Below are positions 6,815-49,860 of a DNA stretch of 64,000 nucleotides, piece by piece; position 1 is the stretch's first letter, and every line of letters begins with the position of its first letter. Under the pieces are notes generated by a model that worked only from the letters and a program-made list of their open reading frames with translations, was not told the DNA's origin and made no database searches. This stretch comes from Candidatus Methylomirabilota bacterium. GTDB taxonomy: Bacteria > Methylomirabilota > Methylomirabilia > Rokubacteriales > CSP1-6. The position numbers were made by a program, and so were the translations under genes. The DNA is taken from NCBI GenBank assembly GCA_036002485.1, contig DASYTI010000051.1, positions 1,304-65,303 on the forward strand, given 5' to 3'.

Positions 6815-8356
6815 ATGACGTTCAGGGAAACCGACGAGGCCGCGTCCCCCGCGATCAGCCATTCCGGCGCGGTGGGCATGCAGCCCAAGATCAAGATCCG
6901 GTCAAAGCTCCGCCACCACGGGCTGTCCAAGGTGAAGGCCGCGCCGGAACCTCTCGCGCCTGATCTCGAGGAGGACGAGGCTGGGGGGCCTGTCATCCTC
7001 GAAGAGACGCCTGCGCTATCGGAGGAAGCCCTTCGGCCCGGCGCGACGACGGGCGAGGATCCAGTCCGCCTCTATCTCAAGGAGATCGGCAAGGTCCGCC
7101 TGCTCACGGCCGAGCAGGAGGTGGCGATCGGCCGTCGTATCGAGGCGGGCCAGATCCAGCTGCGCCGGGCGCTGGCTGGCATTCCCATGGCGACGACCCG
7201 GCTGCTCGGATTGGCTGACCTGATCCGCCGGGATGAAATGGCGCTCGACGAGGTGATCCTCCTGCCCGACGGTGTCGAGCCCAAGCCCGAGGAGGTCAAG
7301 CCGCTGCTCGCCGCCTTCGCCCGCATCCGGCGACTCGAGCGTGAGATAGAGCGGCTCAATGTGGCGCTCGCGGACCGGCGGCGCGGCAAGACCACGCGTG
7401 CCAACTACCACAAGTGGATCGCCCAGAACCGTGCCGCGATCCAGGGCGTGGTCGAGAAGCTGCCGCTGAAGCCGGCGCTCGTGGACCGGGTGGTGACGGA
7501 TATCCGCCGCCAGGCCAAGCGCCTCGCGGAGCTCAAGACGCCGAAGGAAGTCCGGGCGCTCGAGACTCAGATCGGCCTGGGAAAGAAGACCCTGCAGGCC
7601 TCGCTCCGCGAGATCGAGGAGCACGATCGCGTGGTGCGTCAGGCCAAGCGCGAGCTCATGGAAGCCAACTTGCGCCTGGTCGTCTCGGTGGCCAAGCGCT
7701 ACCTCGGGAGCGAGCTCACCCTGCTCGACCTCGTCCAGGAAGGCAATATCGGACTCATGAAGGCCGTGGACCGCTTCCAGTACCGGCGCGGATTCAAGTT
7801 CTCGACGTATGCCACCTGGTGGATTCGCCAGGCCATCACGCGGGCCATCGCCGACCATTCCCGGACCATCCGCATTCCCGTCCACATGGTCGAGACGTTG
7901 AACCGCATCGCGCGGGTGAACCGGAGCATGGTCAATGATCTGGGCCGCGAGCCCACCCCCGAGGAGCTGGCGCAGAAGACGGGTGTCCCCGCCCGCAAGG
8001 TCCGGCTCATCCTCGAGTCCTCGCGCAAGCCGCTGTCCCTCGAGACACCGATCGGGGAAGACTCCGAGCTCGGGGATTTCCTCGAGGACAAGAGCGCCGA
8101 GTCACCGAACGAGACGCTCATCACGCAGGATCTCACCACCCAGGTCGAGCGGGCCCTCAGCACGCTGAGCGCCAAGGAGAAGGAGATCCTTCGGCTGCGC
8201 TTCGGTATCGGTGAGGAGGGCGAGCACACGCTCGAAGAGGTGGGCCGGCGCTTCTCCGTCACCCGGGAGCGCATCCGTCAGATCGAGACCAAGGCGCTCC
8301 GCAAGCTCCGCCACCCCCTGCGCGGGCGGGCCCTCAAGGCCTTCGTCGAGAACTGA
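6815..8356 (+). CDS. rpoD: RNA polymerase sigma-70 family factor (RpoD-like primary/group-2)
   Basis: 513 aa; regions 2-4 intact ([41 protein letters not shown]; region 4 HTH); AAGGAG 12 nt upstream; alternative ATG at 6878. Confidence 0.85.
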
Positions 8357-11678: not shown

Positions 11679-11835
11679 AAAAAGGAGTCCAGATGCAAGG
11701 CGGCGCCCCGCCGTTCGAGTTACGCTCCCCTGGCGAGCAAAATGTTCCGCTTCGAGCGCCGGCTGCGCCGGCGCAATCGGTTCCGGGGGGAGGGTTCGGA
11801 AGGGGGGCGGAGCCCCCCTCCGAGCTATTTAGAGG
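11679..11835 (+). repeat. interspersed mosaic intergenic repeat, copy C1 (modules A+B) in the convergent gap between LLM and OCD genes
   Basis: Module A (AAAAAGGAGTCCAGATGCAAGGCGGCGCCCCGCCGTTCGAGTT) and module B (ATGTTCCGCTTCGAGCGCCGGCT...GGAAGGGGGGCGGAGCCCCCCTCCGAGCTATTTAG) recur at 14933-15110 (inverted), 41903-42000, 30668-30712 and 44098-44142. Confidence 0.85.
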
Positions 11836-14932: not shown

Positions 14933-15110
14933 GCCTCCTAGTGAGCTCGGAGGGGGCTCCGCCCCCCTTCCGAAAGCTCCCCCGACGCAGTGCGAACCAG
15001 AGGACGTCGCGGGGCAGGGGCCCCGCCGTCCGAGGCGAGCAATCTGAGATTTGCGCCGGCGGAGCTGGCGCTCGAAACGGAACAATGTTGCTCGTGAGGG
15101 CACGGGAATC
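14933..15110 (-). repeat. interspersed mosaic repeat, copy C2 (module B, inverted), inside the carboxylase operon between BCCP and DinB-family genes
   Basis: The reverse complement matches module B of C1 and C3 with an extra central insert. Its TAG end abuts the DinB-family SD (TAGGAGG). Confidence 0.85.
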
Positions 15111-15117
15111 GCCTGGG

Positions 15118-15333
15118 CTAGTCGAGGACGGCGACGGTCTCGCCTTCCTGCACGGTCTGTCCCTCGGCGACCTTGATCTCCTTCACCTTGCCGGCTCTGG
15201 GCGCCTCCACCGGAATCTCCATCTTCATGGACTCCAGCACGATGACGGGGTCGCCGGCCGCCACGGCGTCGCCGACCTTGCTCGTGATCTGGAAGACCAC
15301 GCCCGTGATGTGCGCCTTGACGTCCTCAGGCAT
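15118..15333 (-). CDS. biotin carboxyl carrier protein (stand-alone biotinyl domain, 71 aa)
   Basis: EAMKM-type biotinylation motif (ESMKMEIPV); AAGGAG SD; overlaps accC by 8 nt. Confidence 0.9.
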   Translation of the reverse strand: MPEDVKAHITGVVFQITSKVGDAVAAGDPVIVLESMKMEIPVEAPRAGKVKEIKVAEGQTVQEGETVAVLD

Positions 15334-20326: not shown

Positions 20327-20494
20327 TTACGGCGACCCGGCCGCCCCGCTCCGGGCGCGCCACTTGTCCACCGACTTCTTCGAGAACAGCCACTGCCCGT
20401 CTTGCTCGAGGGCCGGGATGCGCCGCTCCACGGCCAGGCGCTCGAGGGTGGCGGCATCCATGGACAGATAGGTCGAGGCTTCGGCCACCGTCAT
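20327..20494 (-). CDS. small helix-turn-helix DNA-binding protein (excisionase/MerR-like HTH_17)
   Basis: 55 aa MTVAEASTYLSMDAATLERLAVERRIPALEQDGQWLFSKKSVDKWRAR, typical HTH_17. Confidence 0.55.
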   Translation of the reverse strand: MTVAEASTYLSMDAATLERLAVERRIPALEQDGQWLFSKKSVDKWRARSGAAGSP

Positions 20495-20508
20495 CGTGTC
20501 TTTGGGAA

Positions 20509-21168
20509 TCACGTGCGCGAGGTCTCCTTGAGTGCCTGCCTGAGCGACTCGATCTCGGCCTCGAGGGCGTGGATGCGCTCCACCATCTGCTCGAGGGTGC
20601 GGGCCAATGGGTCCGGCAGGTCGCTCTGATTCAGGTCGATGCCGGATCGGGCCCCGTCCCGGAATGTTACGCGTCCCGGCACCCCGACCACAACCGAGTT
20701 CTCGGGCACCTCCCGCACCACGACGGAGCCGGCTCCGATCCGGCTTCCCTTGCCGATGCGGAACCCGCCGATGATCTTGGCGCCCGCGCCCACCACCACG
20801 TTGTCGCCGAGGGTGGGGTGGCGCTTCTCGCGCTTGGTGCTCGTGCCCCCCAGCGTCACCCCCTGCAGGATCGACACGTTCTCTCCCACCTCCGCCGTCT
20901 CGCCGATGACCACCCCCATGCCGTGGTCGATGAAGAGCCCGGGCCCGAGGACGGCCGCGGGGTGAACCTCCACCCCGGTCAAGAAGCGACTGACGTGGGA
21001 GAGGAAGCGCGCCGGCGTGTGCCACCCGGCCTTCCAGAGGGGATGCGCGAGGCGGTGGAACCAGATGGCATGCACGCCGGGACAGCAGAGCACGACCTCC
21101 AGCGGCGACCGCGCCGCGGGATCGCGCTCCAGCACCGTCCGGACGTCACGCCGCATCTGCTCGAACAT
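20509..21168 (-). CDS. cysE: serine O-acetyltransferase
   Basis: 219 aa; hexapeptide-repeat left-handed beta-helix ([28 protein letters not shown]) plus SAT N-terminal domain. Confidence 0.9.
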
Positions 21169-21179
21169 GGAAAGCCTCC

Positions 21180-21557
21180 CTATCTCCGGCCGTTCCGGGC
21201 CAGGGCATCGCGTGCCGCCGCGCGCAGGGCCCCCGCCACCACCAGGGCGGCGTGGCGCCGCTCGGGCGGCAGTCCTCCCACGGCGGCCTCGATCCGCGCC
21301 GGCGGCACCGTGGCGAGATCTTCAAGGGTGAAACCCGCGGCTATTTCGGTGCCGGCGCTACACGCGGCGAGCGTCGGCCCGCATCCATAAGCCTGGAACC
21401 GCGCTTCTTCCACCCGGCCGTCGCGCACCCGCAGGTAGAAGCGCGCCAGGTCCATGCATTCCGTGAACTCCTCCTCGCCCACCCCGTCGGGCTCCCGCAT
21501 GACGCCCGCGTTCCGCGGGTTGCGGAAGTGATCGATGAGGGTCGGACTGTATTGCAC
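21180..21557 (-). CDS. NifU/IscU-like Fe-S scaffold N-terminal-domain paralog (degenerate: 2 of 3 Cys, LPPER instead of LPPVK)
   Basis: About 125 aa from GTG 21557 ([18 protein letters not shown]); CMD and GCGP Cys motifs align with IscU, but the third Cys is Ala (RHAAL). Start uncertain. Confidence 0.6.
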
Positions 21558-21673
21558 TAGCCGATCGAAGGGGGCCTCGACGGCCCCCTCCGAGCCTCCC
21601 CCAGCATGGGGTTGCGCCGGCGAAGCCGGCGCTCGAAAGAACGAAGTTGCGAACCCACGTCTTGGACAGCCTC

Positions 21674-22837
21674 CTAGGGGCGGCCGGCCCCGACGGGCGA
21701 CTGGGTGCGGAGCTTGGCCACGAGGGGGACGACGGACTCGATCACGTAGTCGATGTCCTCGGCCGAGGTGGCGTGGCCCAGCGACGAGCGCACCGAGCCC
21801 ATGGCCCAGTCGAGCGGGATGCCCATGGCCACGAGCACGTAGGAGGGCTCGACATTGCCCGAGGTGCAGGCGGAGCCCGCGGAGACGCCGATCCCCTTGA
21901 GGTCGAGGCCGAGCACGATGGACTCCGACTCGACATTGCGGAAGCACAGATTGCACGTGCCCGGCAACCGCTCGGTGGGATGTCCGTTCAGGCGCACCTC
22001 TTCCACGCGCCCCCGCACGCCGTCCCACAAGCGGTCGCGGAGCGCGGTCAGGCGCACCGCCTCCTCCGCCATCTCGCGGGCGCGGATCTCCACGGCCTTG
22101 CCGAGGCCGACGATGCCCGCGACGTTCTCGGTGCCCGCGCGGCGCCGGCGCTCGTGCTCGCCCCCGTGCTGGATGGAGGCCATCTTGGTGCCTTTCCGGA
22201 TGTAGAGCCCCGCCACTCCCTTGGGTCCATAGATCTTATGTCCCGAGAAGGACAGCAGGTCGATCCCGAAGGCATCCACGTCGATGGGCACCTTGCCGAA
22301 GATCTGGACGCCGTCCACGTGCAGGGGCACCCCTGCCTCACGGGTGATGCGTCCGATCTCGCGGATGGGCTGGAGAGTACCGACCTCCGAGTTCGCGCCC
22401 ATGAGGGACACCACGATGGTGTCCGGCCGCAGCGCCGCGCGGACATCAGCGGGGCTGACCATGCCGTGGCCATCCACGGGCAGATAGGTGGCGGTGAATC
22501 CGTCCTGCTCGAGGGCCTGCACCGTGCGCAGGACCGCATGATGCTCGATCTGCGAAGTGATGATGTGGCCCGACCGCCGCGCGGCGGCCACGCCCTTGAT
22601 GCCCAGGTTGTCGGACTCCGTGCCGCCCGAGGTGATGACGATCTCGTCCTTCGACACCTTGAGGAAGGCGGCGATCTGCTCGCGGCCCGCCTCCATGCCG
22701 TCGCGGGCCTCGCGGCCGAAGCCGTGGACGCTCGAGGGATTGCCGAAGCGCTCGCTGAAATAGGGCAGCATGGCCTGGAGCACCTCGGGATGCACCGGCG
22801 TGGATGCGTTGTGATCGAGATAGACTCGGCGATTCAT
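21674..22837 (-). CDS. nifS: NifS-like class I cysteine desulfurase
   Basis: 387 aa; PLP Lys (SFSGHKIYGPKG) and active-site SAGSACTSG. Confidence 0.9.
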   Translation of the reverse strand: MNRRVYLDHNASTPVHPEVLQAMLPYFSERFGNPSSVHGFGREARDGMEAGREQIAAFLKVSKDEIVITSGGTESDNLGIKGVAAARRSGHIITSQIEHHAVLRTVQALEQDGFTATYLPVDGHGMVSPADVRAALRPDTIVVSLMGANSEVGTLQPIREIGRITREAGVPLHVDGVQIFGKVPIDVDAFGIDLLSFSGHKIYGPKGVAGLYIRKGTKMASIQHGGEHERRRRAGTENVAGIVGLGKAVEIRAREMAEEAVRLTALRDRLWDGVRGRVEEVRLNGHPTERLPGTCNLCFRNVESESIVLGLDLKGIGVSAGSACTSGNVEPSYVLVAMGIPLDWAMGSVRSSLGHATSAEDIDYVIESVVPLVAKLRTQSPVGAGRP

Positions 22838-22875
22838 TGACGCTCCTCTCTCTGGGTGCTACGCTCGGCCCCGCG

Positions 22876-23193
22876 ATGAACCTGGCGAAGCGCAAGCTTG
22901 GACTCATGGTCTCCACGGCGCCCGAGCATCCGAATCTCGACACCGCCCTGGGGCTCGGCCGCGCCGCCCTCGACCGCGGCGCCGAGGTGTACCTCTACCT
23001 CATCGACGACGGCGTGGTCGGCGTGGAGGACGCTCGCGTGCAGGACCTGGCCGAGCGCGGCGCCAAGCTGTTCGTCTGCGCGTACGGCTGCCAGAAGCGC
23101 CGGCGGCCGCTTTCCGACAAAGCCACCAACTGCGGTCTGGTGGTCCTCGCCGACATCGTCAACGCGACCGATCGCTTTCTCGCCTTCAACTAG
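22876..23193 (+). CDS. DsrE/TusD-like sulfur-relay protein
   Basis: 105 aa from ATG 22876; conserved Cys context LFVCAYGCQKRR aligns with the TusD Cys78 region (NICVAAALRRG). Confidence 0.6.
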   Translation: MNLAKRKLGLMVSTAPEHPNLDTALGLGRAALDRGAEVYLYLIDDGVVGVEDARVQDLAERGAKLFVCAYGCQKRRRPLSDKATNCGLVVLADIVNATDRFLAFN

Positions 23194-23194
23194 C

Positions 23195-23551
23195 GTGGCG
23201 GCCCGCCACCCCGTTCTCGTCCTGATCTCGGAGGATCCGCGCGTCTCCCACCGCGCGAACGAGGCCATGCGCATCGCCCTCGGCCTGGTGGCGGGCGAGA
23301 CCCCGGTGGACATCGTGCTCACGGGCCCCGCCGTCCATCTGCTCGACGAAGACACGGATGACCTCGTGGACGGCGATGACATCGCCAAGTTCCGCGCCTC
23401 GCTGAAAAAGCTCGGCATCCCCTTCCTCGTGGAAGCGGGGGCGGCGCCCGCTGATCCGTCCTGGAACGCCCACGGACACCCCGTGGCGCCCATCACGACC
23501 GAAGGCATCGCCGCGCTCGTGCCCAAGGCCGAGCGCTTTCTTGTCTTCTGA
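23195..23551 (+). CDS. DsrF/TusC-like sulfur-relay protein
   Basis: 118 aa; GTG 23195 lies 1 nt after the upstream TAG (coupled); DsrE/F-fold similarity. Confidence 0.5.
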   Translation: MAARHPVLVLISEDPRVSHRANEAMRIALGLVAGETPVDIVLTGPAVHLLDEDTDDLVDGDDIAKFRASLKKLGIPFLVEAGAAPADPSWNAHGHPVAPITTEGIAALVPKAERFLVF

Positions 23552-23775
23552 TGCCCCGCTTCCTTCATCTCATCAAGCGGGACTCCCTGCCCCTGGCCCC
23601 CGCCCTCGTGGCGCGGCAGCTTCAGGAGCCCGGCGCGGAGGTCACCGTGGTGCTCCTCGACGGCGCCGCTCCCGCCCTGCCCGCGGGGGTGGCCGTCAAG
23701 CGTCTGGGCGCCGACCTCGATCACGATGCGCTCCTGGATCTGATCTTCGCGAGCGATCACGTGGTCACCTGGTAG
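23551..23775 (+). CDS. DsrH/TusB-like small protein
   Basis: 74 aa; ATG overlaps the upstream TGA (TGATG); third member of a coupled trio. Weak similarity, assigned mainly by position and size. Confidence 0.4.
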   Translation: MPRFLHLIKRDSLPLAPALVARQLQEPGAEVTVVLLDGAAPALPAGVAVKRLGADLDHDALLDLIFASDHVVTW

Positions 23776-23806
23776 CTCGCGCGGCGGCGAGAGGCCGACG
23801 TGGGCA

Positions 23807-27648: not shown

Positions 27649-28875
27649 CTATTCACCCTTCCACTGGATGGTCTTGAGATCCACGCCTTCCTTGGCGAGC
27701 TCGTAGAGCGGGGACATCTCGCGGAGGCGCTGCACGACCTCTACCGAGCGCCGGCCCACGAAGTCCACCTCTTCCTCGGTCGAGAAGCGGTGAAGCCCGA
27801 ACCGGATCGAGGAGTGGGCCAGCTCGGAGTCGACGCCGAGGGCCGCGATGACATAAGAGGGCTCGAGGGTCGACGACGTGCACGCCGAGCCCGATGACAG
27901 CGCGGACTCCTTGTTGAGCCCCATGAGCACCGACTCGCCTTCGACATAGGCGAAGGAGATGTTCAGGTTGTGAGGCAGCCGCTGGGTCGGGTGGCCGTTG
28001 ACATAGGCCTCGTCCACTTTCGAGAGGATGAGATCCTGCAGCCGGTCGCGCAACGCCCCCAGCCGCTTGCCTTCCTCGTCCATGACCTCGCGGCAGATCT
28101 CCGCGGCCTGGCCGAACCCGACGGCCAGGGGTACCGGCACCGTACCGGAGCGCATGCCGCGCTCGTGCCCGCCCCCGTCCATCATGGCCGCCACCCGCAC
28201 CCGGGGACCCTTGCGGCGCACGTAGAGGCAGCCCACGCCCTTCGGCCCGTACATCAGGTGGGCGGTGGCCGAGAGGAGGTCGATGCCCATTGCTTCCACG
28301 TTCACAGGCACCTTGCCCGCGGCCTGGGTCGCGTCGGTGTGGAAGATGATGCCGCGCTCCTTGGCCAGCTTGCCGATCTCGGCGATGGGCTGGATGGTCC
28401 CGATCTCGTTGTTCGCGAACATCACGGAGATCAGGATGGTCTTCTCGGTGATGGCCGCCTTGAGGGCCTCCACGTCCACCAGGCCTTCCCGTCCCACGGG
28501 CAGATACGTCACCTCGAAGCCCTGGCGCTCCAGGCGCTTGCAGACGTCGAGGCTGGCCCGCTGCTCGATGGTCGTGGTGAGGATGTGATTGCCCTTCTCG
28601 CGATACATCTCCGCCACGCCCTTGAGGGCGAGGTTGATGGACTCCGTCCCCCCGGAGGTGAAGACGACTTCCTTCGGATCGCGCGCGCCGATGAGGGTGG
28701 CGATCTGCTCTCGCGCCTTGTCCACCCCGGCTTCCGCCTCCCACCCGAAGGGATGGTTACGGCTGGCCGGGTGGCCGAACTTCTCCGTGAAGTAGGGCAG
28801 CATGGCCTCGAGCACCCGCGGATCCATCGGGGTCGTGGACTGGCTGTCCATGAAGATGGGAAGCTTGAGCGGCAT
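27649..28875 (-). CDS. iscS: cysteine desulfurase IscS
   Basis: 408 aa; IscS-type N-terminus (MPYFTEKFGHPASRNH), SGSACTS active site. Confidence 0.95.
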   Translation of the reverse strand: MPLKLPIFMDSQSTTPMDPRVLEAMLPYFTEKFGHPASRNHPFGWEAEAGVDKAREQIATLIGARDPKEVVFTSGGTESINLALKGVAEMYREKGNHILTTTIEQRASLDVCKRLERQGFEVTYLPVGREGLVDVEALKAAITEKTILISVMFANNEIGTIQPIAEIGKLAKERGIIFHTDATQAAGKVPVNVEAMGIDLLSATAHLMYGPKGVGCLYVRRKGPRVRVAAMMDGGGHERGMRSGTVPVPLAVGFGQAAEICREVMDEEGKRLGALRDRLQDLILSKVDEAYVNGHPTQRLPHNLNISFAYVEGESVLMGLNKESALSSGSACTSSTLEPSYVIAALGVDSELAHSSIRFGLHRFSTEEEVDFVGRRSVEVVQRLREMSPLYELAKEGVDLKTIQWKGE

Positions 28876-30639: not shown

Positions 30640-30872
30640 CCTGCTCGGCATCTTGCAGGCTGCTCAAAAGGGTCCAGATGCGAGGCGGCGCCCCGCACTT
30701 CGAGTTGAGCGGCGGCCATCGGCCGACGCGAGACGAGGGCTGAGTCAATCCGCAGATGAGGCGTAGCTCTCATTCAGCCCTCGCCTCGTGGCTGCGCCTC
30801 TCAGCTCGAACTGCCACGTACGTTGACCCTGCGGCCGAGGGCGCCGCACTCCCGCAGATGGGCCCTTTTCAG
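30640..30872 (+). repeat. interspersed mosaic repeat, copy C5 (modules A, C, D), between the TPR gene end and the galT-like promoter
   Basis: Module A shares about 90% identity with 44098-44175. Contains the GAGGGCTGAG/CTCAGCCCTCGCCTC and CAGCTCGAACTGCCACG motifs shared with 41637-41850 and 49786-49860, and CGCAGATGGGCCCTTTTCAGC shared with 44293-44315. Confidence 0.85.
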
Positions 30873-30879
30873 CAGCCTG

Positions 30880-32301
30880 CTACTTTTCTTTCTCGAACTG
30901 GTTCTTCAGCTTGCGCAGGTGGAGCTTGGCCACATCCACCCAATCCTTCTCGGTGGGCAGCGGCCCCGCCAGCTGGATGTAACGTTCCCAGAGCGTGATG
31001 GCCTCGCGCGGATCCGTACGCTCGAAGACCAGGGCCAGGTTGTAGAGCGCACCCGTGTTCTTGGGATCCAACTCCACCACCTTCTTGTACTCGGCGATGG
31101 CCTCGGGATAGAGACCCTTGTCCTCGTACACCTCGGCCAGCCCCATTCTGGCCTCGGTATTGAGCGGGTCGAGGTCGACGGCTTTCTTGTAGGCTTGCAC
31201 CGACTCGTAGTAGAGACCCTTCTCCGCGTAGTAGATCTTGCCGAGGCTCGCGTGCACCTGGGCGGAGAGCGGATTGTGGACGAGCGCCTTCTGGTAGGCG
31301 CTGATGGCGCCGTTGACGTCGCCCTTGGCGGCCTTGGCATCACCGAGCCCCACGTGGGCCTCGGCATAGAAGGGCCGGAGGTCTATGGCCTTCGCATAGG
31401 CTTCCTCGGCCTGGTCGAAGAGGCGGCGCGGCGCCGTGAGAAAGAGGTCCCCCAGGGACTTGTAGGGCTCGGGGAAGGTCGAGTCGAGCTGCGTCGAGGC
31501 GCGGAACTGTGCCGCCGCCTTCCACCGATTGCCGAGGGCCTGATGGACGGAGCCGAGCGCGTACTGGGCGAGGACGAACTGCGCGTCGGCTTCGATGGCG
31601 CGAGAGAGGTGCTCCACCGCCGCCTCATTGGCCTCCTGCGTGCCGCGAACGGCCGCGGCGCGACCGCGCACGTAGGACTCCCAGGCCTTGAGGGAGCCCG
31701 TGGGGGCGGCCCACTTCTGCATGCGCGCGGCCTCGGCATCGGAGAGCGGGATCTTGAGCGACCGCGCATAGGCCACGGGCAGCTGGCGCAGCTTCTCGAG
31801 CAGCGCACCGTCCGGCACGGCGATCGGATCGAGGGTTCCCCGCTCCACCCGCTCGCCGCGAACCTCGACCCAGCGGGCCTGGATCGTCGCGTCCCCCGCC
31901 GCCGCGCGGCGTATCTCGCCAAAGAAGGCGACATCGGCCCGGAGCACTCGGGCGGCGGCCACAGTCGCCTGCTCGTCCCAGGCATCGGGCTGCGTCAAGG
32001 ACTGGAGCCGTGACCGCTCGATCAGGATGATGCCGGGGATCTGGCGGAAGCTGCTCATGATCGACTGGGCGGCCGCCTCGCCCATCCACTGCTCTTCGCG
32101 CGGAAGGTCCGGAGTGGCGAAGGGCAGGATGAGCACGCTGCGGACCTTGGTGGCGGCGGCGGCCGGCGTCTGTGCCGACGCGGGCATCGCCCCCCAGACA
32201 AGGAGCCAGGCGGTGCAGACGGCGAGCCAGGCAATGCGGGTGATGATTGCGCGGCGTTTCGAGATGCTGCTATCGGATACGCGGCTACCGATTCGTGTCA
32301 C
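30880..32301 (-). CDS. TPR-repeat protein with signal/TM anchor (BatC-like)
   Basis: 473 aa; multiple 34-aa TPR units; terminal gene of the MoxR/Bat-like operon. Confidence 0.8.
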   Translation of the reverse strand: MTRIGSRVSDSSISKRRAIITRIAWLAVCTAWLLVWGAMPASAQTPAAAATKVRSVLILPFATPDLPREEQWMGEAAAQSIMSSFRQIPGIILIERSRLQSLTQPDAWDEQATVAAARVLRADVAFFGEIRRAAAGDATIQARWVEVRGERVERGTLDPIAVPDGALLEKLRQLPVAYARSLKIPLSDAEAARMQKWAAPTGSLKAWESYVRGRAAAVRGTQEANEAAVEHLSRAIEADAQFVLAQYALGSVHQALGNRWKAAAQFRASTQLDSTFPEPYKSLGDLFLTAPRRLFDQAEEAYAKAIDLRPFYAEAHVGLGDAKAAKGDVNGAISAYQKALVHNPLSAQVHASLGKIYYAEKGLYYESVQAYKKAVDLDPLNTEARMGLAEVYEDKGLYPEAIAEYKKVVELDPKNTGALYNLALVFERTDPREAITLWERYIQLAGPLPTEKDWVDVAKLHLRKLKNQFEKEK

Positions 32302-39050: not shown

Positions 39051-40106
<1,056 letters not shown>

Positions 40107-41629: not shown

Positions 41630-41999
41630 GAACTGCCTCAGCCCTCGCCTCGCCGCTGATCAACTCAGCCCTCTCCTCAGGGCTTCGCCCTTCAGCTCGA
41701 ACTGCCACGCCTGCGGGATTTACTCGGGCCTCTCCTCGCGGCTGTGCGCTCAGCTCGAAGAGCGGGCCACGTCTCAGCTCGAACTCTCTCAGCCCTCGCC
41801 TCGCCGTGCTCCTCGCCTGCGGCTCGTCGGCCACGTCTCAGCTCGAACTGCGCGGCCTGCTGTCTCCCGCGAGCGGTCTCTCCAAGTAGTTCACCTGCCC
41901 TCGCGAGCGCGAATGTTCCACTTCGAGCGCCGGCTTGGCCGCGCAATCCGTGCGGGGGGAGGCTTCGGAACGGGGGCGGAGCCCCCTCCGAGCTATCTA
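41630..41999 (+). repeat. cluster of interspersed repeats: 76-nt module C (inverted copy of 49786-49860), iterated TCAGCTCGAAC/CTCAGCCCTCGCC motifs, and module B (copy C3) abutting the selD stop
   Basis: 41637-41712 is the reverse complement of 49786-49860 with 2 mismatches in 76 nt. 41903-42000 matches module B of 11741-11830, and the GGAACGGGGGCGGAGCCCCCTCC hairpin lies immediately 3' of selD. Confidence 0.85.
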
Positions 42000-43073
42000 G
42001 CGCACCGCGATACCGATCTCCCCGGTCACTTCACCGATCTCCCAGCAGGGCTCGCCTCGCCGAGCGAATCCGTCGAGGACCAGCGGCACGTCCTCGCGCG
42101 CGATGCCGAAGAGCAGCCCCCCCGAGGTCTCGGACTCGTAGAGCAGCCCCGCCTGCGCAATCGAGATGCTGGAAGCCAGCGACAGGCGGCCACGGGCACC
42201 GAGGGTGTCCTCGAGATGCTGCCTGTTGCGCTTCATGCCCCCGCTCCACTGCCCCTTCTCGGCGAGGACGAGAGCCCCGGGCAGGAGCGGGATGTCCCGG
42301 AACCGGAGCGCAATGCCCGCGCCCGAGGCCTCCACCATTTCCGCCGCGTGGCCCAGGAGGCCGAAGCCCGTGACATCGGTGGCCCCTCTCACACCTGCCT
42401 CCCTCACCACCTCGGCGGCGCCCCGGTTGAGTCTGAGCATGCTCTGCACGGCGCCTTCGAGGACGACCGCGTCGCAGGCATCGTTCTTGGCCGCGGTGGC
42501 GATGACCCCCGTGCCGAGCGGCTTGGAGAGGAACAGCCGGTGGCCGGGCCGTAGCCCGCCCTTGATCAAGACACGCTTTGGGTGCACGCGGCCGGTTACG
42601 CAGAGACCATACTTGGGCTCGGCGTCGACCACGGTGTGACCGCCCGCGATCACGCCTCCCGCCTCGAGGACCTTGTCGGCCCCGCCCTTGAAGACAGCCG
42701 CGATCACGGCCTTGGGCATCTCGCGAGGGAAGCCCGCGAGGTTCAGCGCGAAGAGAACCTCGCCCCCCATGGCGTAGACGTCGGACATCGCATTGGCCGC
42801 CGCGATAGCTCCGAAAAGATACGGATCGTCGACGATGGGGGCGAAGAAATCCACGGTACTGACCACCGCCACCTCATCGGAGACGCGATAGACGGCGGCA
42901 TCATCGCTCTTGCCGAGGCCGACCAGGAGGTCCGGATGCGCATGCTCACGCAGGCTCTCGAGCACGTCCCGGAGATCTCCGGGACCCATCTTGGACGCTC
43001 AGCCGGCGCAGGCCGCGTAGCTGGTGAGACGGATGGCCTTGCCCGTCTTGGGATCGATGATCTGCGTGTTCAT
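41997..43073 (-). CDS. selD: selenophosphate synthetase (selenide, water dikinase) SelD, selenocysteine-containing (in-frame UGA at 43001-42999)
   Basis: The listed 330-aa ORF (41997-42989) matches SelD but lacks the catalytic N-terminus. Extending upstream through one in-frame TGA gives MNTQIIDPKTGKAIRLTSYAACAG-U-ASKMGPGDL..., aligning to E. coli [21 protein letters not shown] with TGA at Cys17 and Lys20 conserved. A palindromic hairpin follows 13 nt 3' of the UGA. Confidence 0.85.
42960..42998 (-). ncRNA. putative bacterial SECIS hairpin immediately 3' of the selD UGA
   Basis: GUCCCGGAGAUCUCCGGGAC perfect palindrome (42966-42985) starting 13 nt downstream of the UGA codon. Confidence 0.5.
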
Positions 43074-44004: not shown

Positions 44005-44084
44005 GGCCGGAGTATAGGCGCGGGTTGCGCCAGTGTCTACTGAGAGTGTGGAAGCGAGCCAGCGGAGCGAGGTGCTCGAGATTG

Positions 44085-44320
44085 GGTAGGCGGCTCAAAA
44101 GGGTCCAGGTGCGAGGCGGCGCCCCGCCGTTCGAGTTGAGCGGCGGCCAGCGGCCGACGCGAGGCGAGGGCTGAGTTAGTCCGCACGCGAGCCGTACTCT
44201 CTGTACGTTGAGCGTGCAGCCGAGGGACGTCATATGGTTAGCTAGGTGTGGATAAACTCAGCTGAGCGGTAGGGGTCTCTTCGCGCAAGCGTTCATCGCC
44301 GCAGATGGGCCTGTTTCAGC
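44085..44320 (+). repeat. interspersed mosaic repeat, copy C4 (modules A, C, D)
   Basis: About 90% identical to 30668-30745; carries GTG-initiated mini-ORF 44109-44174; CGCAGATGGGCCTGTTTCAGC module D. Confidence 0.85.
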
Positions 44321-44323
44321 CGC

Positions 44324-44536
44324 TTAGTGGCAGCCGCACCCGCCGCCGCAACAGCCGCCCCCTGACATGGGGGCGGAACCCGCGGCGGCGGCATTGGTCC
44401 GCACGGAGAGAAGCGAGAGGCGGCGCGTGACGCGGGCGCTCTCGCACGAAGGACAGGCGACGGCCGTCGCGCTCGAGGGGACGTACTTCTCGAACTCGCC
44501 CTCGCACTGATTGCAGCGATACTCGTAGATCGGCAT
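44324..44536 (-). CDS. FmdB-family zinc-ribbon protein
   Basis: 70 aa; MPIYEYRCNQCEGEFE...CPSCES plus Gly/Cys-rich tail. Confidence 0.8.
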   Translation of the reverse strand: MPIYEYRCNQCEGEFEKYVPSSATAVACPSCESARVTRRLSLLSVRTNAAAAGSAPMSGGGCCGGGCGCH

Positions 44537-44579
44537 ATGGGTCCGGGTCCCTCGTCCGCTTTCCAGGCTGCCCGCGCGC

Positions 44580-44780
44580 TTACTGGCCGCCGCGCTGCAC
44601 GTAGCTCTTCACGAACTCCTCGGCGTTCTCCTCGAGGATATCGTCGATCTCGTCCAGGAGGTTGTCGAGGTCCTCCTTGATCTTCTTGCCCTTCTTGGCG
44701 ACCTCGGGGTTCGCCCCCGCCGCATCGTCGCCGCCTTCGGGCTTGGTCGGTCTCGTTTCCTTCTTCTTCTGCTCAGCCAT
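44580..44780 (-). CDS. pup: prokaryotic ubiquitin-like protein Pup
   Basis: 66 aa from ATG 44780 (AGGAGGAG SD); C-terminus DNLLDEIDDILEENAEEFVKSYVQRGGQ is the canonical Pup motif ending GGQ. Confidence 0.85.
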   Translation of the reverse strand: MAEQKKKETRPTKPEGGDDAAGANPEVAKKGKKIKEDLDNLLDEIDDILEENAEEFVKSYVQRGGQ

Positions 44781-45051
44781 GAACGACTCCTCCTGAGCCC
44801 GCAAGCGGGCCCGGCGCCGGGGCCTAGATCGTCGGCAGGACTATCCCTGCTGGCCCTGGTACTTCCCCTGCCTGTCCGCATACGCGAATGGCGTGAGGTT
44901 CGTGATCATGCCACAGCGGGCGTAGGTGGACTTCCCCCTGCAGATCGTGAGCACGTTGCGGCGGATCCAGCGATCGCTCACCTGTTCACCCTGTTCGATC
45001 CGTGACGGTCGACCTTCATGCTCGAATGGTATCGCCCGCGTGGAGAAAGAG

Positions 45052-45990
45052 TCAAGTCTCGGCCTCCTCACTCACGGTAACAGGCGACGATCCGGCGGGG
45101 TTCCAGGTCGCTCCCGCCGTGTCGACGGGCAGAGCAAAGGCCCGGCCCCCTCCCCCGGAGTGACGCAAGGCCAGCTCCATGGCGTGCCCGACGGGCTCGG
45201 CGGCGCCTCGAACCGCGGCCAGGAGAGAGGGGCCGGCACCGGAGAGAGCGCAGCCGAGCGCGCCCGCCTCGAGCGCGGCCCGTCGCACCGTCTCCATCCA
45301 CGGAAAGAGCGGCAGCCGCTGCGGCTGGTGGAGCCTGTCCTCCATGCCGAGGCCGAGAAGGTCCGTCCGCCCCGTGCCGAGCGCGGCCAGGAGCAATCCC
45401 ATGCGCTGGAGATTGAAGACGGCATCCGCGCGGGAGACCGTCCCTGGCAGGAGCGCGCGCGCCTCGTGGGTCGAGCTCTGCGCCTCCGGCACGAGAACGA
45501 CCCAGGTGATAGCGGCCGGTACGGGCAACGACACGGCGACCACCTGCTGCCCGGTGGCGCACGAGACCGTGAGCCCGCCCAGGAGGGCCGCGGCGACATT
45601 GTCCGGATGGCCTTCGGCCCGGCAGGCGAGCGCCAGCACAGCATCACGGTCGAGGGGGGAGCCCAGCGCCGCATTGGCGGCCACGAGTCCGCCCACCCAG
45701 GCGGCGGCGCTCGAGCCGAGTCCCCGCGCCAGGGGGATCCGGTTGACGCAGCGTATGGATGCGCCACGGAATCGGCGACCGGCGGCCTCGTAGGCCATGC
45801 GCGCCCCACGTGACACCACATTGTCGGCGCCCGTGTCGAGCCGGCGCGCCCCTTCGCCCTCTATCGAGACGGCGACGCGATCGGCCTCTTCGTAGAGGAT
45901 CTCGTTGTAGAGGCCGAGGGCCAGACCCAGCACGTCGAAGCCCGGGCCCAAGTTGGCCGAGGTCGCGGGCACGCGCACGTCGATCTTCAT
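45052..45990 (-). CDS. thrB: homoserine kinase
   Basis: 312 aa from ATG 45990; GHMP-kinase motifs ([11 protein letters not shown]) and ThrB-type N-terminus ([17 protein letters not shown]). Confidence 0.85.
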
Positions 45991-46134
45991 GACGACAGCA
46001 TACCCGCGGGCCGCTGAAAAAGGCCCATCTGCTTCGTTGGCGCCCTCGATCGCACGCTCAACGTATAGAGAGTACGCCTCGCGTGCCACCTTCGGGCGCC
46101 GTCTCGCATCTGGACGTTTTTGAGCGGCCGGCCG

Positions 46135-46872
46135 CTAGAGGCGTTTGAGGAGCCACTCGGGAGTCAGTGAGATGGCCCACGAATTCAGGATGATGTAGTA
46201 GTTGGTGGCGACGAGCACGCCCACCACCACGAGCAGGACTCCCGCCGTCCGCTCCACGATCGGAATCAGCGGTCGATACCGCTTGAAGAATCGCAAGAAG
46301 CCGCCCAACGCCATGGAGAAGACCAGGAAAGGCACGCCCAGCCCCGCCGAATAGGCCAGAAGCAGCCACACACCCTGGTTCACGGTCTTCTCCGTGCTCG
46401 CGAGGGTCAGGATGGAGCCCAGGATGGGCCCGACGCAGGGTGTCCAGCCGATCGCGAAGGTCATGCCCACGGCGAGCGAACCCAGAAAGCCCGCCGGCTT
46501 GGTGCGGACCTGGACCTGGCGGGTGCGGTCGAGCACCCCCCACTTGAGGAGCCCCGCGATGTAGAGGCCAAAGAGCGCGATGAGCACGCCGCCCGCGATC
46601 CGTATCCAGTCACGGTAGTCGAGGAGGAATTGCCCCGCCGCGCTGAAGGAAGCGCCCAGGCTCACGAAGATGACCGTGAAGCCGGCGATGAAGGCCAGCG
46701 AGTGCAGGAGGACCCGAACGCGCTCGGCCACTAGCAGCTCCGAGCTCAGCCGGTCCACCGACATGCCGGTGACGAAGGAGACGTAGGAGGGAAAGAGGGG
46801 CAGCACGCACGGCGAGAGGAAGGACACCAGCCCCGCCGAGAACGCGACACCGAAGGTCAGGGGCTCAGCCAC
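46135..46872 (-). CDS. ccdA: cytochrome c-type biogenesis thiol-disulfide transporter CcdA/DsbD-core
   Basis: 245 aa from GTG 46872, overlapping the tlpA stop; two conserved Cys in TM1 and TM4 (SPCVLP, WTPCVGP). Confidence 0.8.
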   Translation of the reverse strand: MAEPLTFGVAFSAGLVSFLSPCVLPLFPSYVSFVTGMSVDRLSSELLVAERVRVLLHSLAFIAGFTVIFVSLGASFSAAGQFLLDYRDWIRIAGGVLIALFGLYIAGLLKWGVLDRTRQVQVRTKPAGFLGSLAVGMTFAIGWTPCVGPILGSILTLASTEKTVNQGVWLLLAYSAGLGVPFLVFSMALGGFLRFFKRYRPLIPIVERTAGVLLVVVGVLVATNYYIILNSWAISLTPEWLLKRL

Positions 46873-49699: not shown

Positions 49700-49729
49700 T
49701 GTTCGAGCCGAGACGCTGCCCGTTCTTCG

Positions 49730-49860
49730 AGCTGAACGACGGCCTCTGGCCGTCGCGAGGCGAGAGCTGGGTCAATCCCGAAGGCGTGGCAGTTCGAGCT
49801 GAAGGGCGAAGCCCTGAAGCGAGGGCTGAGTTGATCAGCGGCGAGGCGAGGGCTGAGTAA
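49730..49860 (+). repeat. interspersed repeat (module C, 76-mer plus extra GCGAGGCGAGGGCTGAG unit) immediately upstream of the tartrate-DH-like gene
   Basis: Reverse-complement match to 41637-41712; ends GAGGGCTGAGTAAG directly before the ATG at 49862. Confidence 0.85.

Follow-up and report, generated by a model that had tools for sequence, protein, structure and literature searches.

The locus at positions 11679-11835 of the window, by which we mean the whole 64,000-nt stretch of DNA analyzed, is a degenerate chimera of three repeat elements that we termed H, B, and C. An orphan H left arm, AAAAAGGAGTCCAGATGCAAGGCGGCGCCC, is followed by the first 12 to 15 nt of a C unit, CGCCGTTCGAGTT (11680..11726, plus strand), with no right arm, and then by a 5'-truncated copy of the long form of B (11727..11829, plus strand). 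This B copy folds into two hairpins, GCGCCGGC-TGC-GCCGGCGC and CGGAAGGGGGGC-GGA-GCCCCCCTCCG, and its end, TTTAG, overlaps the TAA stop codon (11829-11831, minus strand) of an ornithine-cyclodeaminase gene. The GATGCAAGG variant of the orphan arm is common to three chimeras in which B is nested within the H arms (L143, L150, and L244).

Self-BLASTN and repeat finding revealed that this is one of eight loci in the window with repeats shared far beyond chance, covering ∼1.55 kb (2.4% of the window). They recovered all the similarities named in a sequence-only reading of this DNA, which had missed two of the loci (21557-21677 and 46003-46135). That reading had estimated ∼90% identity, and self-BLASTN gave 91.8% over 98 nt for 30657-30754 and 44088-44185 (E value, 4e-34), 91.3% over 104 nt for 41637-41740 and the reverse complement of 49754-49857 (E value, 7e-36), and 88% over 92 nt for 11741-11832 and 41912-42000 (E value, 3e-20), while 11786-11826 and the reverse complement of 14944-14983 were 92.7% identical. 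A 76-mer said to be shared between 41637-41712 and 49786-49860 aligned over 72 nt with 2 mismatches. Copies occur in both orientations and differ by 1-nt indels and by insertions of ∼65 nt and 45 to 60 nt, and hundreds of them were found in other genomes and metagenomes.

The single mosaic family proposed earlier resolves into at least three. H is a single long imperfect hairpin of ∼130 nt, and its left and right arms are modules A and D, which had been taken for independent units; module D was indeed found at 30853, at 44300, and, inverted, at 46013-46032. B (∼90 to 145 nt) contains two GC-rich hairpins, and C (∼55 to 65 nt) has a small hairpin enclosed by the fixed motifs TTCGAGCTGAG and CGAGGCGAGGGCTGAG. 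These sizes fit small non-coding dispersed elements (<∼400 bp), and indels and compensatory changes exclude a coding function.

The only uninterrupted H in the window, hereafter the canonical H (46003..46135, minus strand; row 1 of our H alignment, A2), is a 133-nt imperfect hairpin with TA on either side (46001-46002 and 46136-46137). The CTAG at 46135-46138 holds the upstream TAG, which is the stop codon of a DsbD_TM gene, and the ATG of a GHMP-kinase gene lies ∼10 nt past the other end. This copy is also present in the strain contig L001. A second H (44088..44324, plus strand), detected by repeat search, self-BLASTN, and a partial covariance model match (28.9 bits at 44178-44223), contains nested material: its left arm (module A, 44088-44128) is followed by a C unit (44130-44175), the apical stem (44178-44223), ∼70 nt of unrelated filler, and the right arm (module D, 44296-44324), with TA on both sides (44086-44087 and 44325-44326). 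L071 carries an H at the matching site upstream of the LysR orthologue, and a derived CTGTTT right arm is common to both. The third H (30655..30880, plus strand; repeat search and self-BLASTN) holds two nested C units, one (30699-30744) between the left arm (30655-30697) and the apical stem and the other, inverted, splitting that stem at ∼30768-30818, ahead of the right arm (30850-30880). Its last C and the following TA (30880-30882) form the TAG stop of a minus-strand TPR gene, and its composite architecture recurs in L091, L123, L027, and L052. C was found at one constant internal position of H in 7 copies.

The other loci consist of B copies and C-unit arrays. A long-form B with a ∼70-nt insert between its two hairpins (14938..15121, minus strand) lies, as had been noted, inside an operon between a biotin-carrier gene and a DinB-family gene. 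It has CTAG on both sides, one (15118-15121) being the stop of the biotin-carrier gene and the other (14938-14941) adjoining the Shine-Dalgarno sequence of the DinB-family gene, and it is kept in all close strains (L124 and L125). A diverged copy of the GGGGGCC-GTCGA-GGCCCCC subtype (21557..21677, minus strand), again with CTAG on both sides, sits between the stop codon of a cysteine-desulfurase gene and an unlisted iscU-like gene with a GTG start; it is present in L148 and absent at the orthologous L111 site, where the spacer is 11 nt. Another long form (41887..42000, plus strand) runs from a TAG (41887-41889) to a CTAG (41997-42000) that contains the TAG stop of a minus-strand AIRS-family gene, the selD-like neighbor named in the sequence-only reading. 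Next to it, a C-unit array (41630..41860, minus strand) begins 6 nt past the stop codon of a zf-HC2 gene, its minus-strand unit reading TTCGAGCTGAG, a variable hairpin, and CGAGGCGAGGGCTGAG; the corresponding arrays of L129 and L130 have one extra 64-nt unit. A second C-unit array (49701..49860, plus strand) lies between a PdxA stop codon and the ATG (49862) of an Iso_dh-family gene, the tartrate-dehydrogenase-like neighbor expected there, and ends 4 nt before that ATG. In L001, this array measures 66 nt instead of 162 nt, with identical flanks. Tandem copy number of C thus differs between strains ∼99.8% identical and could serve as a marker among them.

We then analyzed the distribution of the families. 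H occurs in at least 120 stretches of GTDB genomes, nearly all from metagenome-assembled genomes (MAGs) of Rokubacteria/Methylomirabilota. We found ∼110 distinct copies in 700 kb, ∼16 of them not seeded by the search pattern, which was the left conserved block, so that the conservation of this block is partly by construction; 6 copies were present in 493 kb of contigs picked for B and not for H. The pattern was not found in viral contigs, and matches in gammaproteobacterial L011 and Nitrospirales L079 were discarded as chance pattern matches. We also considered contigs from Acidoferrum, Sulfotelmatobacter, and Limnocylindria bins as an extension of the range of H; since they have the 71% GC typical of Rokubacteria, they are probably mis-binned or mislabeled. 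The repeats break MAG assemblies, as many H copies are located at contig ends. B was also found in at least 120 stretches. Structural evidence for B is weak, since only 3 of its 17 pairs covary and hairpin 1 was fixed by the search pattern. Clear terminal inverted repeats are lacking in B, and its ends are unlike those of H.

Rokubacteria are abundant, uncultured soil bacteria, and we found nothing in the literature on their non-coding DNA; in particular, no paper on repeats, MITEs, or ncRNAs of Rokubacteria/Methylomirabilota describes H, B, or C. A search of Rfam 15 gave no gathering-score match in the whole window, nothing at E ≤ 10 for the canonical H, and only sub-threshold noise at E ≤ 10 for the A/B and C/B loci, which agrees with the earlier supposition that the elements are unannotated. 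No tRNA or tmRNA origin was found for the repeats. An attC site was rejected as well, as H ends in GCAGGCTGCT...AGCAGCCTGC and not in RYYYAAC...GTTRRRY, and so was a CRISPR array, the copies being single and irregularly spaced between syntenic housekeeping genes, with no regularly spaced direct repeats.

The structure of H was evaluated in 47 copies and 45 pairs. Pairing was kept in 98.1% of the cells, and compensatory changes were found at 16 of the 45 pairs, in 108 cells that are not independent events, as H copies share ancestry. None of 500 shuffles matched the observed values, and slid controls paired at 30 to 44%. The arms pair over their full length and thus constitute terminal inverted repeats, with invariant blocks TCCAGATGCGAGGCGGCGCCC and GGGCGCCAACGAAGCAGATGGGCC. 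Compensatory pairs account for 6 of 9 in helix 5, between the invariant blocks, and for 6 of 9 in the outer helix 1. The terminal 10 nt vary among copies with the two ends always complementary, and compensatory changes were also seen 50 nt into the element. The internal loops and tandem G·A mismatches are invariant. One pair is U·G in 47/47 copies, and two more are G·U in 43/47 and 42/47 copies, C-G replacing G·U at one of these pairs in one MAG; variable G·U was seen in 14 columns versus A·C in 6. Wherever the two arms differ in a fixed way, the mismatch is G·U or G·A and favors one strand. Accordingly, covariance model R1 scored the canonical H at 134.9 bits on the minus strand versus 48.5 bits on the plus strand, and the predicted RNA fold had −72.9 kcal/mol (z score, −6.9) versus −60.5 kcal/mol for the other strand. 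On both strands, the inner hairpin lies between A5 and T5 tracts, one subfamily having UUAUC/UUCUC in place of U5. Since compensatory pairing reaches the very termini and the fixed G·U and tandem G·A favor one strand, we infer that H is selected as a folded single strand. Variants of H are genome specific: compensatory variants are common to copies of one MAG, and identity is 92.7% within MAGs versus 89.1% between MAGs.

We then looked into the positioning of the copies relative to genes. H and B end at (C)TAG, in most cases a stop codon. The window contains 27 CTAG sites where 87 would be expected, and 6 of these sites are boundaries of repeats. A gene stop codon adjoins at least one side in 71/88 H copies (81%), and in 31 copies this stop is the CTA that follows the right arm; C-TA directly follows the last pair in 27 of 47 copies. 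The feet of H are CTAG (the majority) or GTAG on both sides, a feature not separable from target-site preference. H starts with G and finishes in C, which regenerates the TAG stop of the neighbor and explains why copies sit exactly at gene ends. H and B land at (C)TAG, which is nearly confined to stop codons in this genome.

Comparison of related genomes revealed filled and empty sites. H is present in L111, flanked as TA-[H]-TA, and absent at window positions 21169-21199, where a single TA is found; the same contrast was seen for L082/L250, L095/L137, and L040/L015. H thus has TA/TAG on both sides and a single copy of it at empty orthologous sites, the exact junctions being uncertain because the compared genomes are only 75 to 80% identical. 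In the only near-isogenic comparison, L141 versus L046, a clean 128-nt indel of B was found within flanks 99.2% identical, with no target duplication. The evidence on target duplication is therefore conflicting, the TA/TAG flanks of H fitting a DDE enzyme and the B indel showing no duplication. Indels between L020 and L082 (genomes 97 to 98% identical) were rejected as insertions, as one is a deletion at a gene end and the other an N gap. Within one intergenic region, H has a different site and the opposite orientation in L006 and L029. At some sites, H is shared by genomes whose flanking genes are only 70 to 75% identical, with arms still ∼90% identical, which suggests long retention or selection rather than ongoing mobility.

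We searched for an enzyme that could mobilize the elements. No such enzyme or cognate IS with H or B ends was found in the ∼1.3 Mb of loci examined. IS elements are often missing from MAG contigs. Pairs of arm motifs 350 to 5,000 nt apart enclosed ordinary gene intervals and no transposase-sized segment, so the repeats do not appear to be fragments of one IS element, an outcome that the sequence-only reading had raised. Orphan arm matches were mostly noise, plus two 22-nt mini-hairpins. The 10 ORFs between inverted H pairs yielded no transposase and no Y1 in Pfam; they encode ordinary housekeeping proteins, namely hydrolases, peptidase M50, RNase III, PhoD, DHDPS, and SDR proteins.

In our best reading, H, B, and C are non-autonomous mobile hairpin repeats resembling REPIN, ERIC, and Correia elements, and we estimate at roughly 60% the probability that the window loci are copies of at least three non-coding hairpin repeat families, mobile now or recently, in Rokubacteria. 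The alternative of a REP/MITE-like element or a structured ncRNA family had been posed before. This interpretation is supported, the repeats being non-coding, dispersed, hairpin forming, and polymorphic in presence between related genomes, but the choice is not either/or, as H shows both insertion polymorphism and strong strand-specific covariation. We propose that copying of H and B would depend on an enzyme supplied in trans. The chance that this is a single-strand HUH/Y1-type enzyme (RAYT- or IS200/IS605-like) is a little less than even, a DDE transposase duplicating TA or CTAG (IS630- or IS5-like) is less probable, and something else takes the remainder. The mosaics may have arisen by nesting of C or B within H and propagation of the composite, by tandem gain and loss of C units, and by decay of copies into orphan arms. 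As a side effect on the host, a stable hairpin in 3' untranslated regions or between cistrons is likely and could attenuate transcription or affect mRNA processing.

More tentatively, H, and perhaps B, may be the substrate of a domesticated single-strand HUH/RAYT-like enzyme. H would then be a vertically inherited REPIN-type replicator in Methylomirabilota that homes to TAG stops and doubles as a stop-anchored RNA hairpin shaping 3' ends across the phylum. As an unusually clean dispersed element, with pairing kept to the termini and one strand favored, H may help to determine whether single-strand replicators of the REPIN type occur beyond the known lineages and whether insertion at TAG stops is a safe-harbor strategy.

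We consider it rather unlikely that H is in the first place a structured RNA element used by the host (a portable bidirectional terminator, a 3'-end stabilizer, or a protein or RNase III site), transcribed in neighboring mRNAs and kept by selection, with mobility only its route of arrival. The very strong covariation, the invariant internal loops, the A5/T5 tracts on both strands, and the position kept across diverged flanks would suit such a role. Gene context also points that way: convergent gene pairs are enriched around H (30 of the 65 copies with both neighbors called), divergent promoter regions are nearly avoided (4/65 for H and 0/61 for B), and a sigma70-like promoter of the LysR gene lies just downstream of the H at 44088-44324. 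However, orientation does not track transcription: between co-directional genes H was antisense in 23 cases and sense in 8, and the favored strand is more often the non-transcribed one. Some copies (46003-46135 and L111) lie ∼10 nt before start codons or Shine-Dalgarno sequences within operons, where a strong terminator would be polar. Furthermore, the stem is far longer than those of canonical intrinsic terminators, and a terminator scan of the canonical H gave only an internal mini-stem of 5 pairs (46100-46116, plus strand), followed by a T-run complementary to the A-tract of H. The lack of an Rfam family match also speaks against this role.

Equally doubtful, in our view, is that H and B are ordinary selfish MITEs of a DDE transposon targeting TA or CTAG (IS630/Tc1-like or IS5-like), moving as double-stranded DNA, the hairpin being a by-product of long terminal inverted repeats. 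The TA or CTAG at either end of H, against one TA(G) at empty sites, and the CTAG on both sides of two B copies (14938..15121 and 21557..21677), are as expected from such elements. IS630 prefers TA within CTAG and duplicates the TA, as stated in PMC2170065, which cites Tenzen and Ohtsubo (1991), and elements of this size have precedents in ERIC, Correia, and RUP (PMC3184786). Yet the termini of H vary while staying complementary, which is unexpected if a transposase reads the end sequence, and the compensatory changes deep inside H, the one-strand bias of its arm-to-arm differences, and the B indel devoid of target duplication fit this origin poorly. No cognate IS was found either, and one transposase would not obviously serve both H and B, because their ends are unlike. 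As for an origin by chance in GC-rich DNA or from translated protein repeats, a genome of 68 to 70% GC abounds in short GC-rich matches (many weak two-copy "families" are of that type) and the repeats fall within mechanically listed ORFs, but this explanation is already refuted by E values down to 1e-34 to 1e-36, by the hundreds of copies elsewhere, by the indels, insertions, and two orientations of the copies, by variation that preserves base pairs and not codons, and by the nature of the ORFs themselves, which either are spurious or extend real genes by read-through.

The ORFs that begin at 30748 and 44233 illustrate this last point: both are spurious read-through of the repeat, and the peptide they were noted to share, RVGRWPPLNS..GAPPR.WTLLS, results in each case from minus-strand translation of module A. 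The repeats thus create spurious ORFs and false N-terminal extensions, and the covariance model from this analysis would correct both kinds of annotation error.

The kind of element found here is already known (small mobile DNA of the MITE/REP type), and H, B, and C are a further example, in uncultured soil Rokubacteria (Methylomirabilota). Like the BIMEs of E. coli and the BOX elements of the pneumococcus, the C arrays and composite loci are modular arrays of a few short repeat types with a variable number of middle units, but H, B, and C are separate elements nested in each other, without a fixed A-B(n)-C grammar and without sequence similarity to either. SPRITE, a pneumococcal repeat similar to Rho-independent terminators, is likewise a dispersed terminator-like hairpin (PMC3184786), and H has A- and T-tracts around a GC-rich hairpin. 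The stem of H, however, has ∼45 pairs with internal loops, and H is also found just upstream of start codons in operons.

Correia elements (CREE, Neisseria) and RUP (Streptococcus pneumoniae) both possess inverted ends with TA on the flanks; the transcripts of Correia elements form hairpins, and RUP is regarded as mobilized by an IS630-type transposase. As MITEs of ∼100 to 157 bp dispersed at gene ends (PMC3184786), they resemble H. Their inverted repeats are terminal only, with conserved ends, whereas H pairs as a whole and its ends vary and covary. Insertions at fixed internal positions enlarge some ERIC copies, and we know of no description of a strand-specific G·U/G·A asymmetry in ERIC. 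ERIC (IRU, Enterobacteriaceae) resembles H as an intergenic imperfect palindrome, of ∼127 bp and flanked by TA; it is co-transcribed and influences mRNA fate as RNA (PMC3184786). Unlike ERIC, to which it has no sequence similarity, H is GC rich and anchored on TAG stops. PATEs, related to IS200/IS605, are non-autonomous palindromes beside a fixed short target without duplication, which fits the clean B indel, but IS200/IS605 ends each bear a separate subterminal hairpin, and no TnpA/TnpB was found here.

In REPIN-RAYT systems, which the cited papers describe from Pseudomonas, E. coli, and other Proteobacteria, one of them also mentioning Nostoc, the REP enzyme recognizes one folded DNA strand and needs conserved stem mismatches (PMC3116915, PMC8266576). 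H differs in being one continuous hairpin and not two short REP palindromes, in having TA/TAG on both flanks, in its host phylum, Methylomirabilota, and in having no RAYT gene found near it. As in REPINs, however, we see non-autonomous hairpins of ∼100 nt with two conserved blocks and a spacer whose pairing is kept by compensatory changes (PMC3116915, PMC8266576), as well as genome-specific sequence populations and an extragenic location. The foot of the hairpin is [C/G]TAG in H and GTAG in REPs, and the strand asymmetry and stem mismatches of H are features that an enzyme of this type might read. If a HUH/RAYT-like enzyme does act on H, a REPIN-type system would exist outside the lineages for which these papers (PMC3116915, PMC8266576) describe one.

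GC content lies between 65 and 73% across the whole window, and despite this high GC, comparison of the window with itself revealed repeats far above background: 30657-30754 and 44088-44185 are 91.8% identical over 98 nt (E 4e-34), 41637-41740 and the reverse complement of 49754-49857 are 91.3% identical over 104 nt (E 7e-36), and 11741-11832 and 41912-42000 are 88% identical over 92 nt (E 3e-20). In total, we found eight loci covering ~1.55 kb (2.4% of the window), two of which were added by this comparison, namely, a diverged B element at 21557-21677 and a compact inverted D-E-A copy at 46003-46135. The sequence-only reading had described one mosaic family built from modules A to D. The similarities that it saw hold upon alignment, with E values down to 7e-36: the two inverted copies of the module C 76-mer align with 2 mismatches, module D was located at 30853, 44300, and, inverted, 46013, and at both of its sites the shared peptide RVGRWPPLNS..GAPPR.WTLLS results from translating the minus strand of module A. 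The division into modules did not stand, since A and D are the arms of one imperfect hairpin repeat of ~130 nt (H) and B and C are separate elements. The window contains no tRNAs and no Rfam family, H has no entry in Rfam 15, as the expectation of an unannotated family implied, and we found no paper in the literature describing repeats in this phylum.

In a comparison of the copies, canonical H read (C)TA-GCAGGCTGCTCAAAAAGG-TCCAGATGCGAGGCGGCGCCC-GACGGCCGCACGC-GAGG-CGTAC-TCTCT-GTACG-TTGA-GCGTGCGGCCG-A-GGGCGCC-AACGAA-GCAGATGG-GCCTTTTTCAGCAGCCTGC-TA(G), with module A as the left arm, module D as the right arm, and the inverted pair 44183-44226/46043-46086 as the apical stem. The sole uninterrupted copy in the window is at 46003-46135(-). 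Sixty-seven copies are canonical, ~20 form a second size class with a common ~65-nt module in the apical loop, and smaller classes carry other inserts. Many copies of a "long form" (e.g., L020 6135-6160 and L049 2412-2437, both in related genomes) have an extra direct half-copy of the arm, CTAGCAGGNTGCTGAAAAAC, ~2 to 3 nt upstream of the left arm, so that the right arm could pair with either of two left partners.

C units (TTCGAGCTGAG, a variable hairpin, and CGAGGCGAGGGCTGAG) form arrays at 41630-41860 and 49701-49860 and also interrupt H: one is inserted after GGCGGCGCCC at 44088-44324, and at 30655-30880 a unit at the same position is accompanied by an inverted unit splitting the apical stem. 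Composites like these are present in six MAG loci (L007, L026, L027, L052, L091, and L123); nesting therefore came first, and the composites spread as units afterwards. B consists of hairpin 1 (GCGCCGGC-TNN-GCCGGCGC), a spacer, a GGGGGGAGG motif, and hairpin 2, which exists in at least three mutually compensating versions; its long form starts with CTAG-GAGTCTGTC. B was found within H arms in L143, L150, and L244, which accounts for the locus on which the earlier description was anchored, an orphan H left arm with a C stub (11680-11726) followed by a 5'-truncated B (11727-11829). Further indel-polymorphic short repeats in related genomes (L016 1615-1755, L053 5920-6041, and L232 5483-5609) are tandem CGCTCGCCTCGCC...GGCTCGCC units that have GGCGAGGCGAG in common with C units and with the ~65-nt apical module of long H; the 8-mer GCGAGGCG occurs 39 times in the window, versus 18 expected. 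Other similarities in the window are between paralogues: tandem SBP_bac_5 solute-binding genes (50987-52786 and 52907-54697; 77% nucleotide identity over 1.6 kb), class-V aminotransferase paralogues (21674-22837 and 27649-28875), and an inverted paralogous segment (39538-39852 and 62410-62715; ~74% identical), the last two explaining several weak "repeat families" in the repeat search.

A search of 185,579 species genomes for a 21-nt piece of module A returned at least 120 stretches; among the matches listed, the hosts are almost solely Candidatus Rokubacteria/Methylomirabilota MAGs. Proteins identical to those of the window occur on JGI soil-metagenome contigs (samples 3300036860-3300036864). 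Eight H-bearing contigs (L010, L021, L061, L024, L059, L022, L031, and L065) come from SMAG bins labelled Acidoferrum, Sulfotelmatobacter, or Limnocylindria; their GC content is ~71% and Rokubacteria-like, and they are probably mis-binned or mislabelled, although H may instead have been transferred horizontally.

We then analyzed the folding of H in an alignment of 47 canonical copies. They form a single hairpin of 45 pairs with standard pairing in 98.1% of cells, falling to 30 to 44% when the 3' partner is slid by 1 to 3 columns, and none of 500 column shuffles matched any of five measures. Compensatory double changes affect 16 pairs (108 cells, which are not independent events). The outermost helix and the helix between the conserved blocks hold most of the variation, and each has 6/9 compensatory pairs; the internal loops and the two conserved blocks are invariant, partly by construction for the left block, which served as the search pattern. 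A covariance model recovered ~16 copies not seeded by that pattern. The structure of B is far less informative (3/17 pairs covary, and hairpin 1 is fixed by the search pattern).

The differences between the arms of H are non-random. All 47 copies share one fixed U·G pair, and two adjacent G·U pairs are kept in 43/47 and 42/47, with G-C at one and C-G at the other in the remaining copies; all three canonical copies of one MAG have the C-G form. CAGATG opposite CAGATG and GAGG opposite TTGA each place a tandem G·A mismatch on just one of the strands, and variable columns show G·U more often than A·C (14 versus 6). In line with this strand-biased pattern, the model score of the copy at 46003-46135 is 134.9 bits for the minus strand versus 48.5 for the plus strand. 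Its predicted RNA fold is -72.9 kcal/mol (z -6.9) for the sense strand and -60.5 (z -3.9) for the antisense strand; the predicted DNA fold of the sense strand is -32.2 (z -2.6).

Evaluation of the genetic context, with genes in fetched loci called by third-position GC content, gave 65 H and 61 B copies with both neighbours called. Convergent genes flank 30 H and 21 B copies, and divergent genes flank 4 and 0; between co-directional neighbours, the repeat is antisense in 23 and 23 cases and sense in 8 and 17. The neighbours are ordinary genes (luciferase-like monooxygenase, ornithine cyclodeaminase, an acyl-CoA carboxylase operon with a DinB-family gene, class-V aminotransferase, TPR protein, AIRS-family [selD-like], LysR, Pup, GHMP kinase, DsbD_TM, PdxA, and an Iso_dh-family dehydrogenase). 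As first noticed by eye, copies lie directly at gene ends: a stop codon adjoins at least one side in 71/88 evaluable H copies, the CTA after the right arm being the TAG of a convergent gene in 31/88 and the TAG before the left end that of a co-oriented gene in 14 to 16/88. C-TA directly follows the last pair in 27/47 canonical copies. With G as its first and C as its last nucleotide, H restores the stop codon on either strand when inserted at the TA of a TAG, which explains this location. The window contains 27 CTAG sites versus 87 expected, a strong avoidance; six of the 27 are repeat boundaries, a seventh lies within the H copy at 44088-44324, and most others are at ends of listed ORFs. Both H and B have (C)TAG as their anchor.

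An iscU/nifU-like gene at 21180-21557(-), missed by the gene call, has a GTG start overlapping the terminal CTAG of B; the order is cysteine desulfurase (21674-22837), B, the iscU-like gene, and a hexapeptide transferase gene (20509-21168). A sigma70-like promoter match (TAGACA-17-TATACT, 44011-44039(-)) lies between the start codon of LysR and an H copy; should this promoter be genuine, H would stand between it and the upstream gene.

Comparison between genomes revealed gains and losses. In strains ~99.8% identical, the C array 5' of the Iso_dh gene measures 162 nt in the window versus 66 nt in L001, and L129 and L130 have one extra 64-nt unit 3' of the zf-HC2 gene. L111, ~80% identical to window 20343-23777, lacks the B copy between iscS and iscU (11 nt from stop to start versus ~115 nt) and has H at a site that is empty in the window (filled CAC-TA-[GCGGGATG...GGCCTGC]-TA-GGAGCC versus empty GAGA-TA-GGGAGG), a contrast also seen in L082/L250 and L095/L137. 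Within one intergenic region, L006 and L029 have H at different sites in opposite orientations, L029 keeping only a short remnant at the L006 site. The sole near-isogenic case is a clean 128-nt B indel with 99.2% identical flanks (L046 GGCGGCC|TTAGTGCCC versus L141 GGCGGCC[CTGATG...GAGTCAT]TTAGTGCCC), without target duplication. The H site of L040 holds just a 22-nt mini-hairpin in L015 (CAGGTCGCTGAAAAGCGACCTG, 7306-7331), directly 3' of a TAG stop. Such hairpins, made of the H outer stem alone and also seen in L073 (CGGGCTGCTGAAAAGCAGCCCG, around 4606, (-)), may represent footprints of excision, derivatives formed by deletion, or precursors.

At the sites of the window copies 46003-46135 and 44088-44324, L028 and L071 also have H, with flanking genes only 70 to 75% identical, arms ~90% identical, and interiors remodelled; this speaks against constant turnover. 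Copies are 92.7% identical within a MAG versus 89.1% between MAGs, and several copies of one genome share MAG-specific compensatory variants, as local master-copy amplification would produce. All three families (H, B, and C) consist of dispersed non-coding elements that form hairpins and show indel polymorphism, which supports and sharpens the initial REP/MITE-like or structured-ncRNA reading.

We propose that selection acts on H in the form of a folded single strand with one polarity. Its orientation is independent of neighbouring transcription, the favoured strand being more often antisense, so the constraint probably acts at element copying rather than on each resident copy through host mRNA. 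RAYT enzymes act on a single folded DNA strand, which they bind and cut, and depend on conserved mismatches in its stem; in REP/REPIN elements, the spacer often carries compensatory changes (PMC3116915, PMC8266576). The putative one-strand constraint on H matches these systems, and the duplication-free B indel fits them. We tentatively favour a single-strand HUH-type mechanism, with a probability of about 45%. H plausibly acts for the host as a bidirectional terminator or 3'-end hairpin, in view of its A5/T5 tracts and gene-end location, with an effect that is not strong in every case, since some copies in operons lie ~10 nt upstream of a start codon or Shine-Dalgarno sequence. That H and B are MITEs of a TA-duplicating DDE enzyme is a somewhat less likely alternative; the symmetrical TA/TAG flanks of H fit such an enzyme, IS630 is described as favouring TA within CTAG (PMC2170065, citing Tenzen & Ohtsubo 1991), and ERIC-type elements are ~127 bp with TA flanks (PMC3184786). 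The remaining probability falls to other mechanisms. No mobilising enzyme was found in arm-bounded segments or ORFs between inverted H pairs of the fetched loci. Inverted H copies bracket a 1.7-kb block (44088-46135) with a Cys-rich Zn_ribbon_8-like small ORF (ending at 44326), Pup (44580-44804(-)), a 76-aa ORF, and GHMP kinase; its gene order is kept in strains and distant relatives, so it is not composite-transposon-like.

H is useful for annotation and offers a test case for single-strand replicators outside the lineages of earlier description. Lacking sequence similarity and a known cognate enzyme, and given the conflicting target-duplication results for H and B, it is not assignable to REPIN, ERIC/Correia, BIME/BOX, or SPRITE. 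The repeats belong to a known kind of element and form no new category: H is closest in behaviour to REPINs and ERIC/Correia-type MITEs, the composite loci are reminiscent of BIME/BOX mosaics, and the terminator-like look of H recalls SPRITE.
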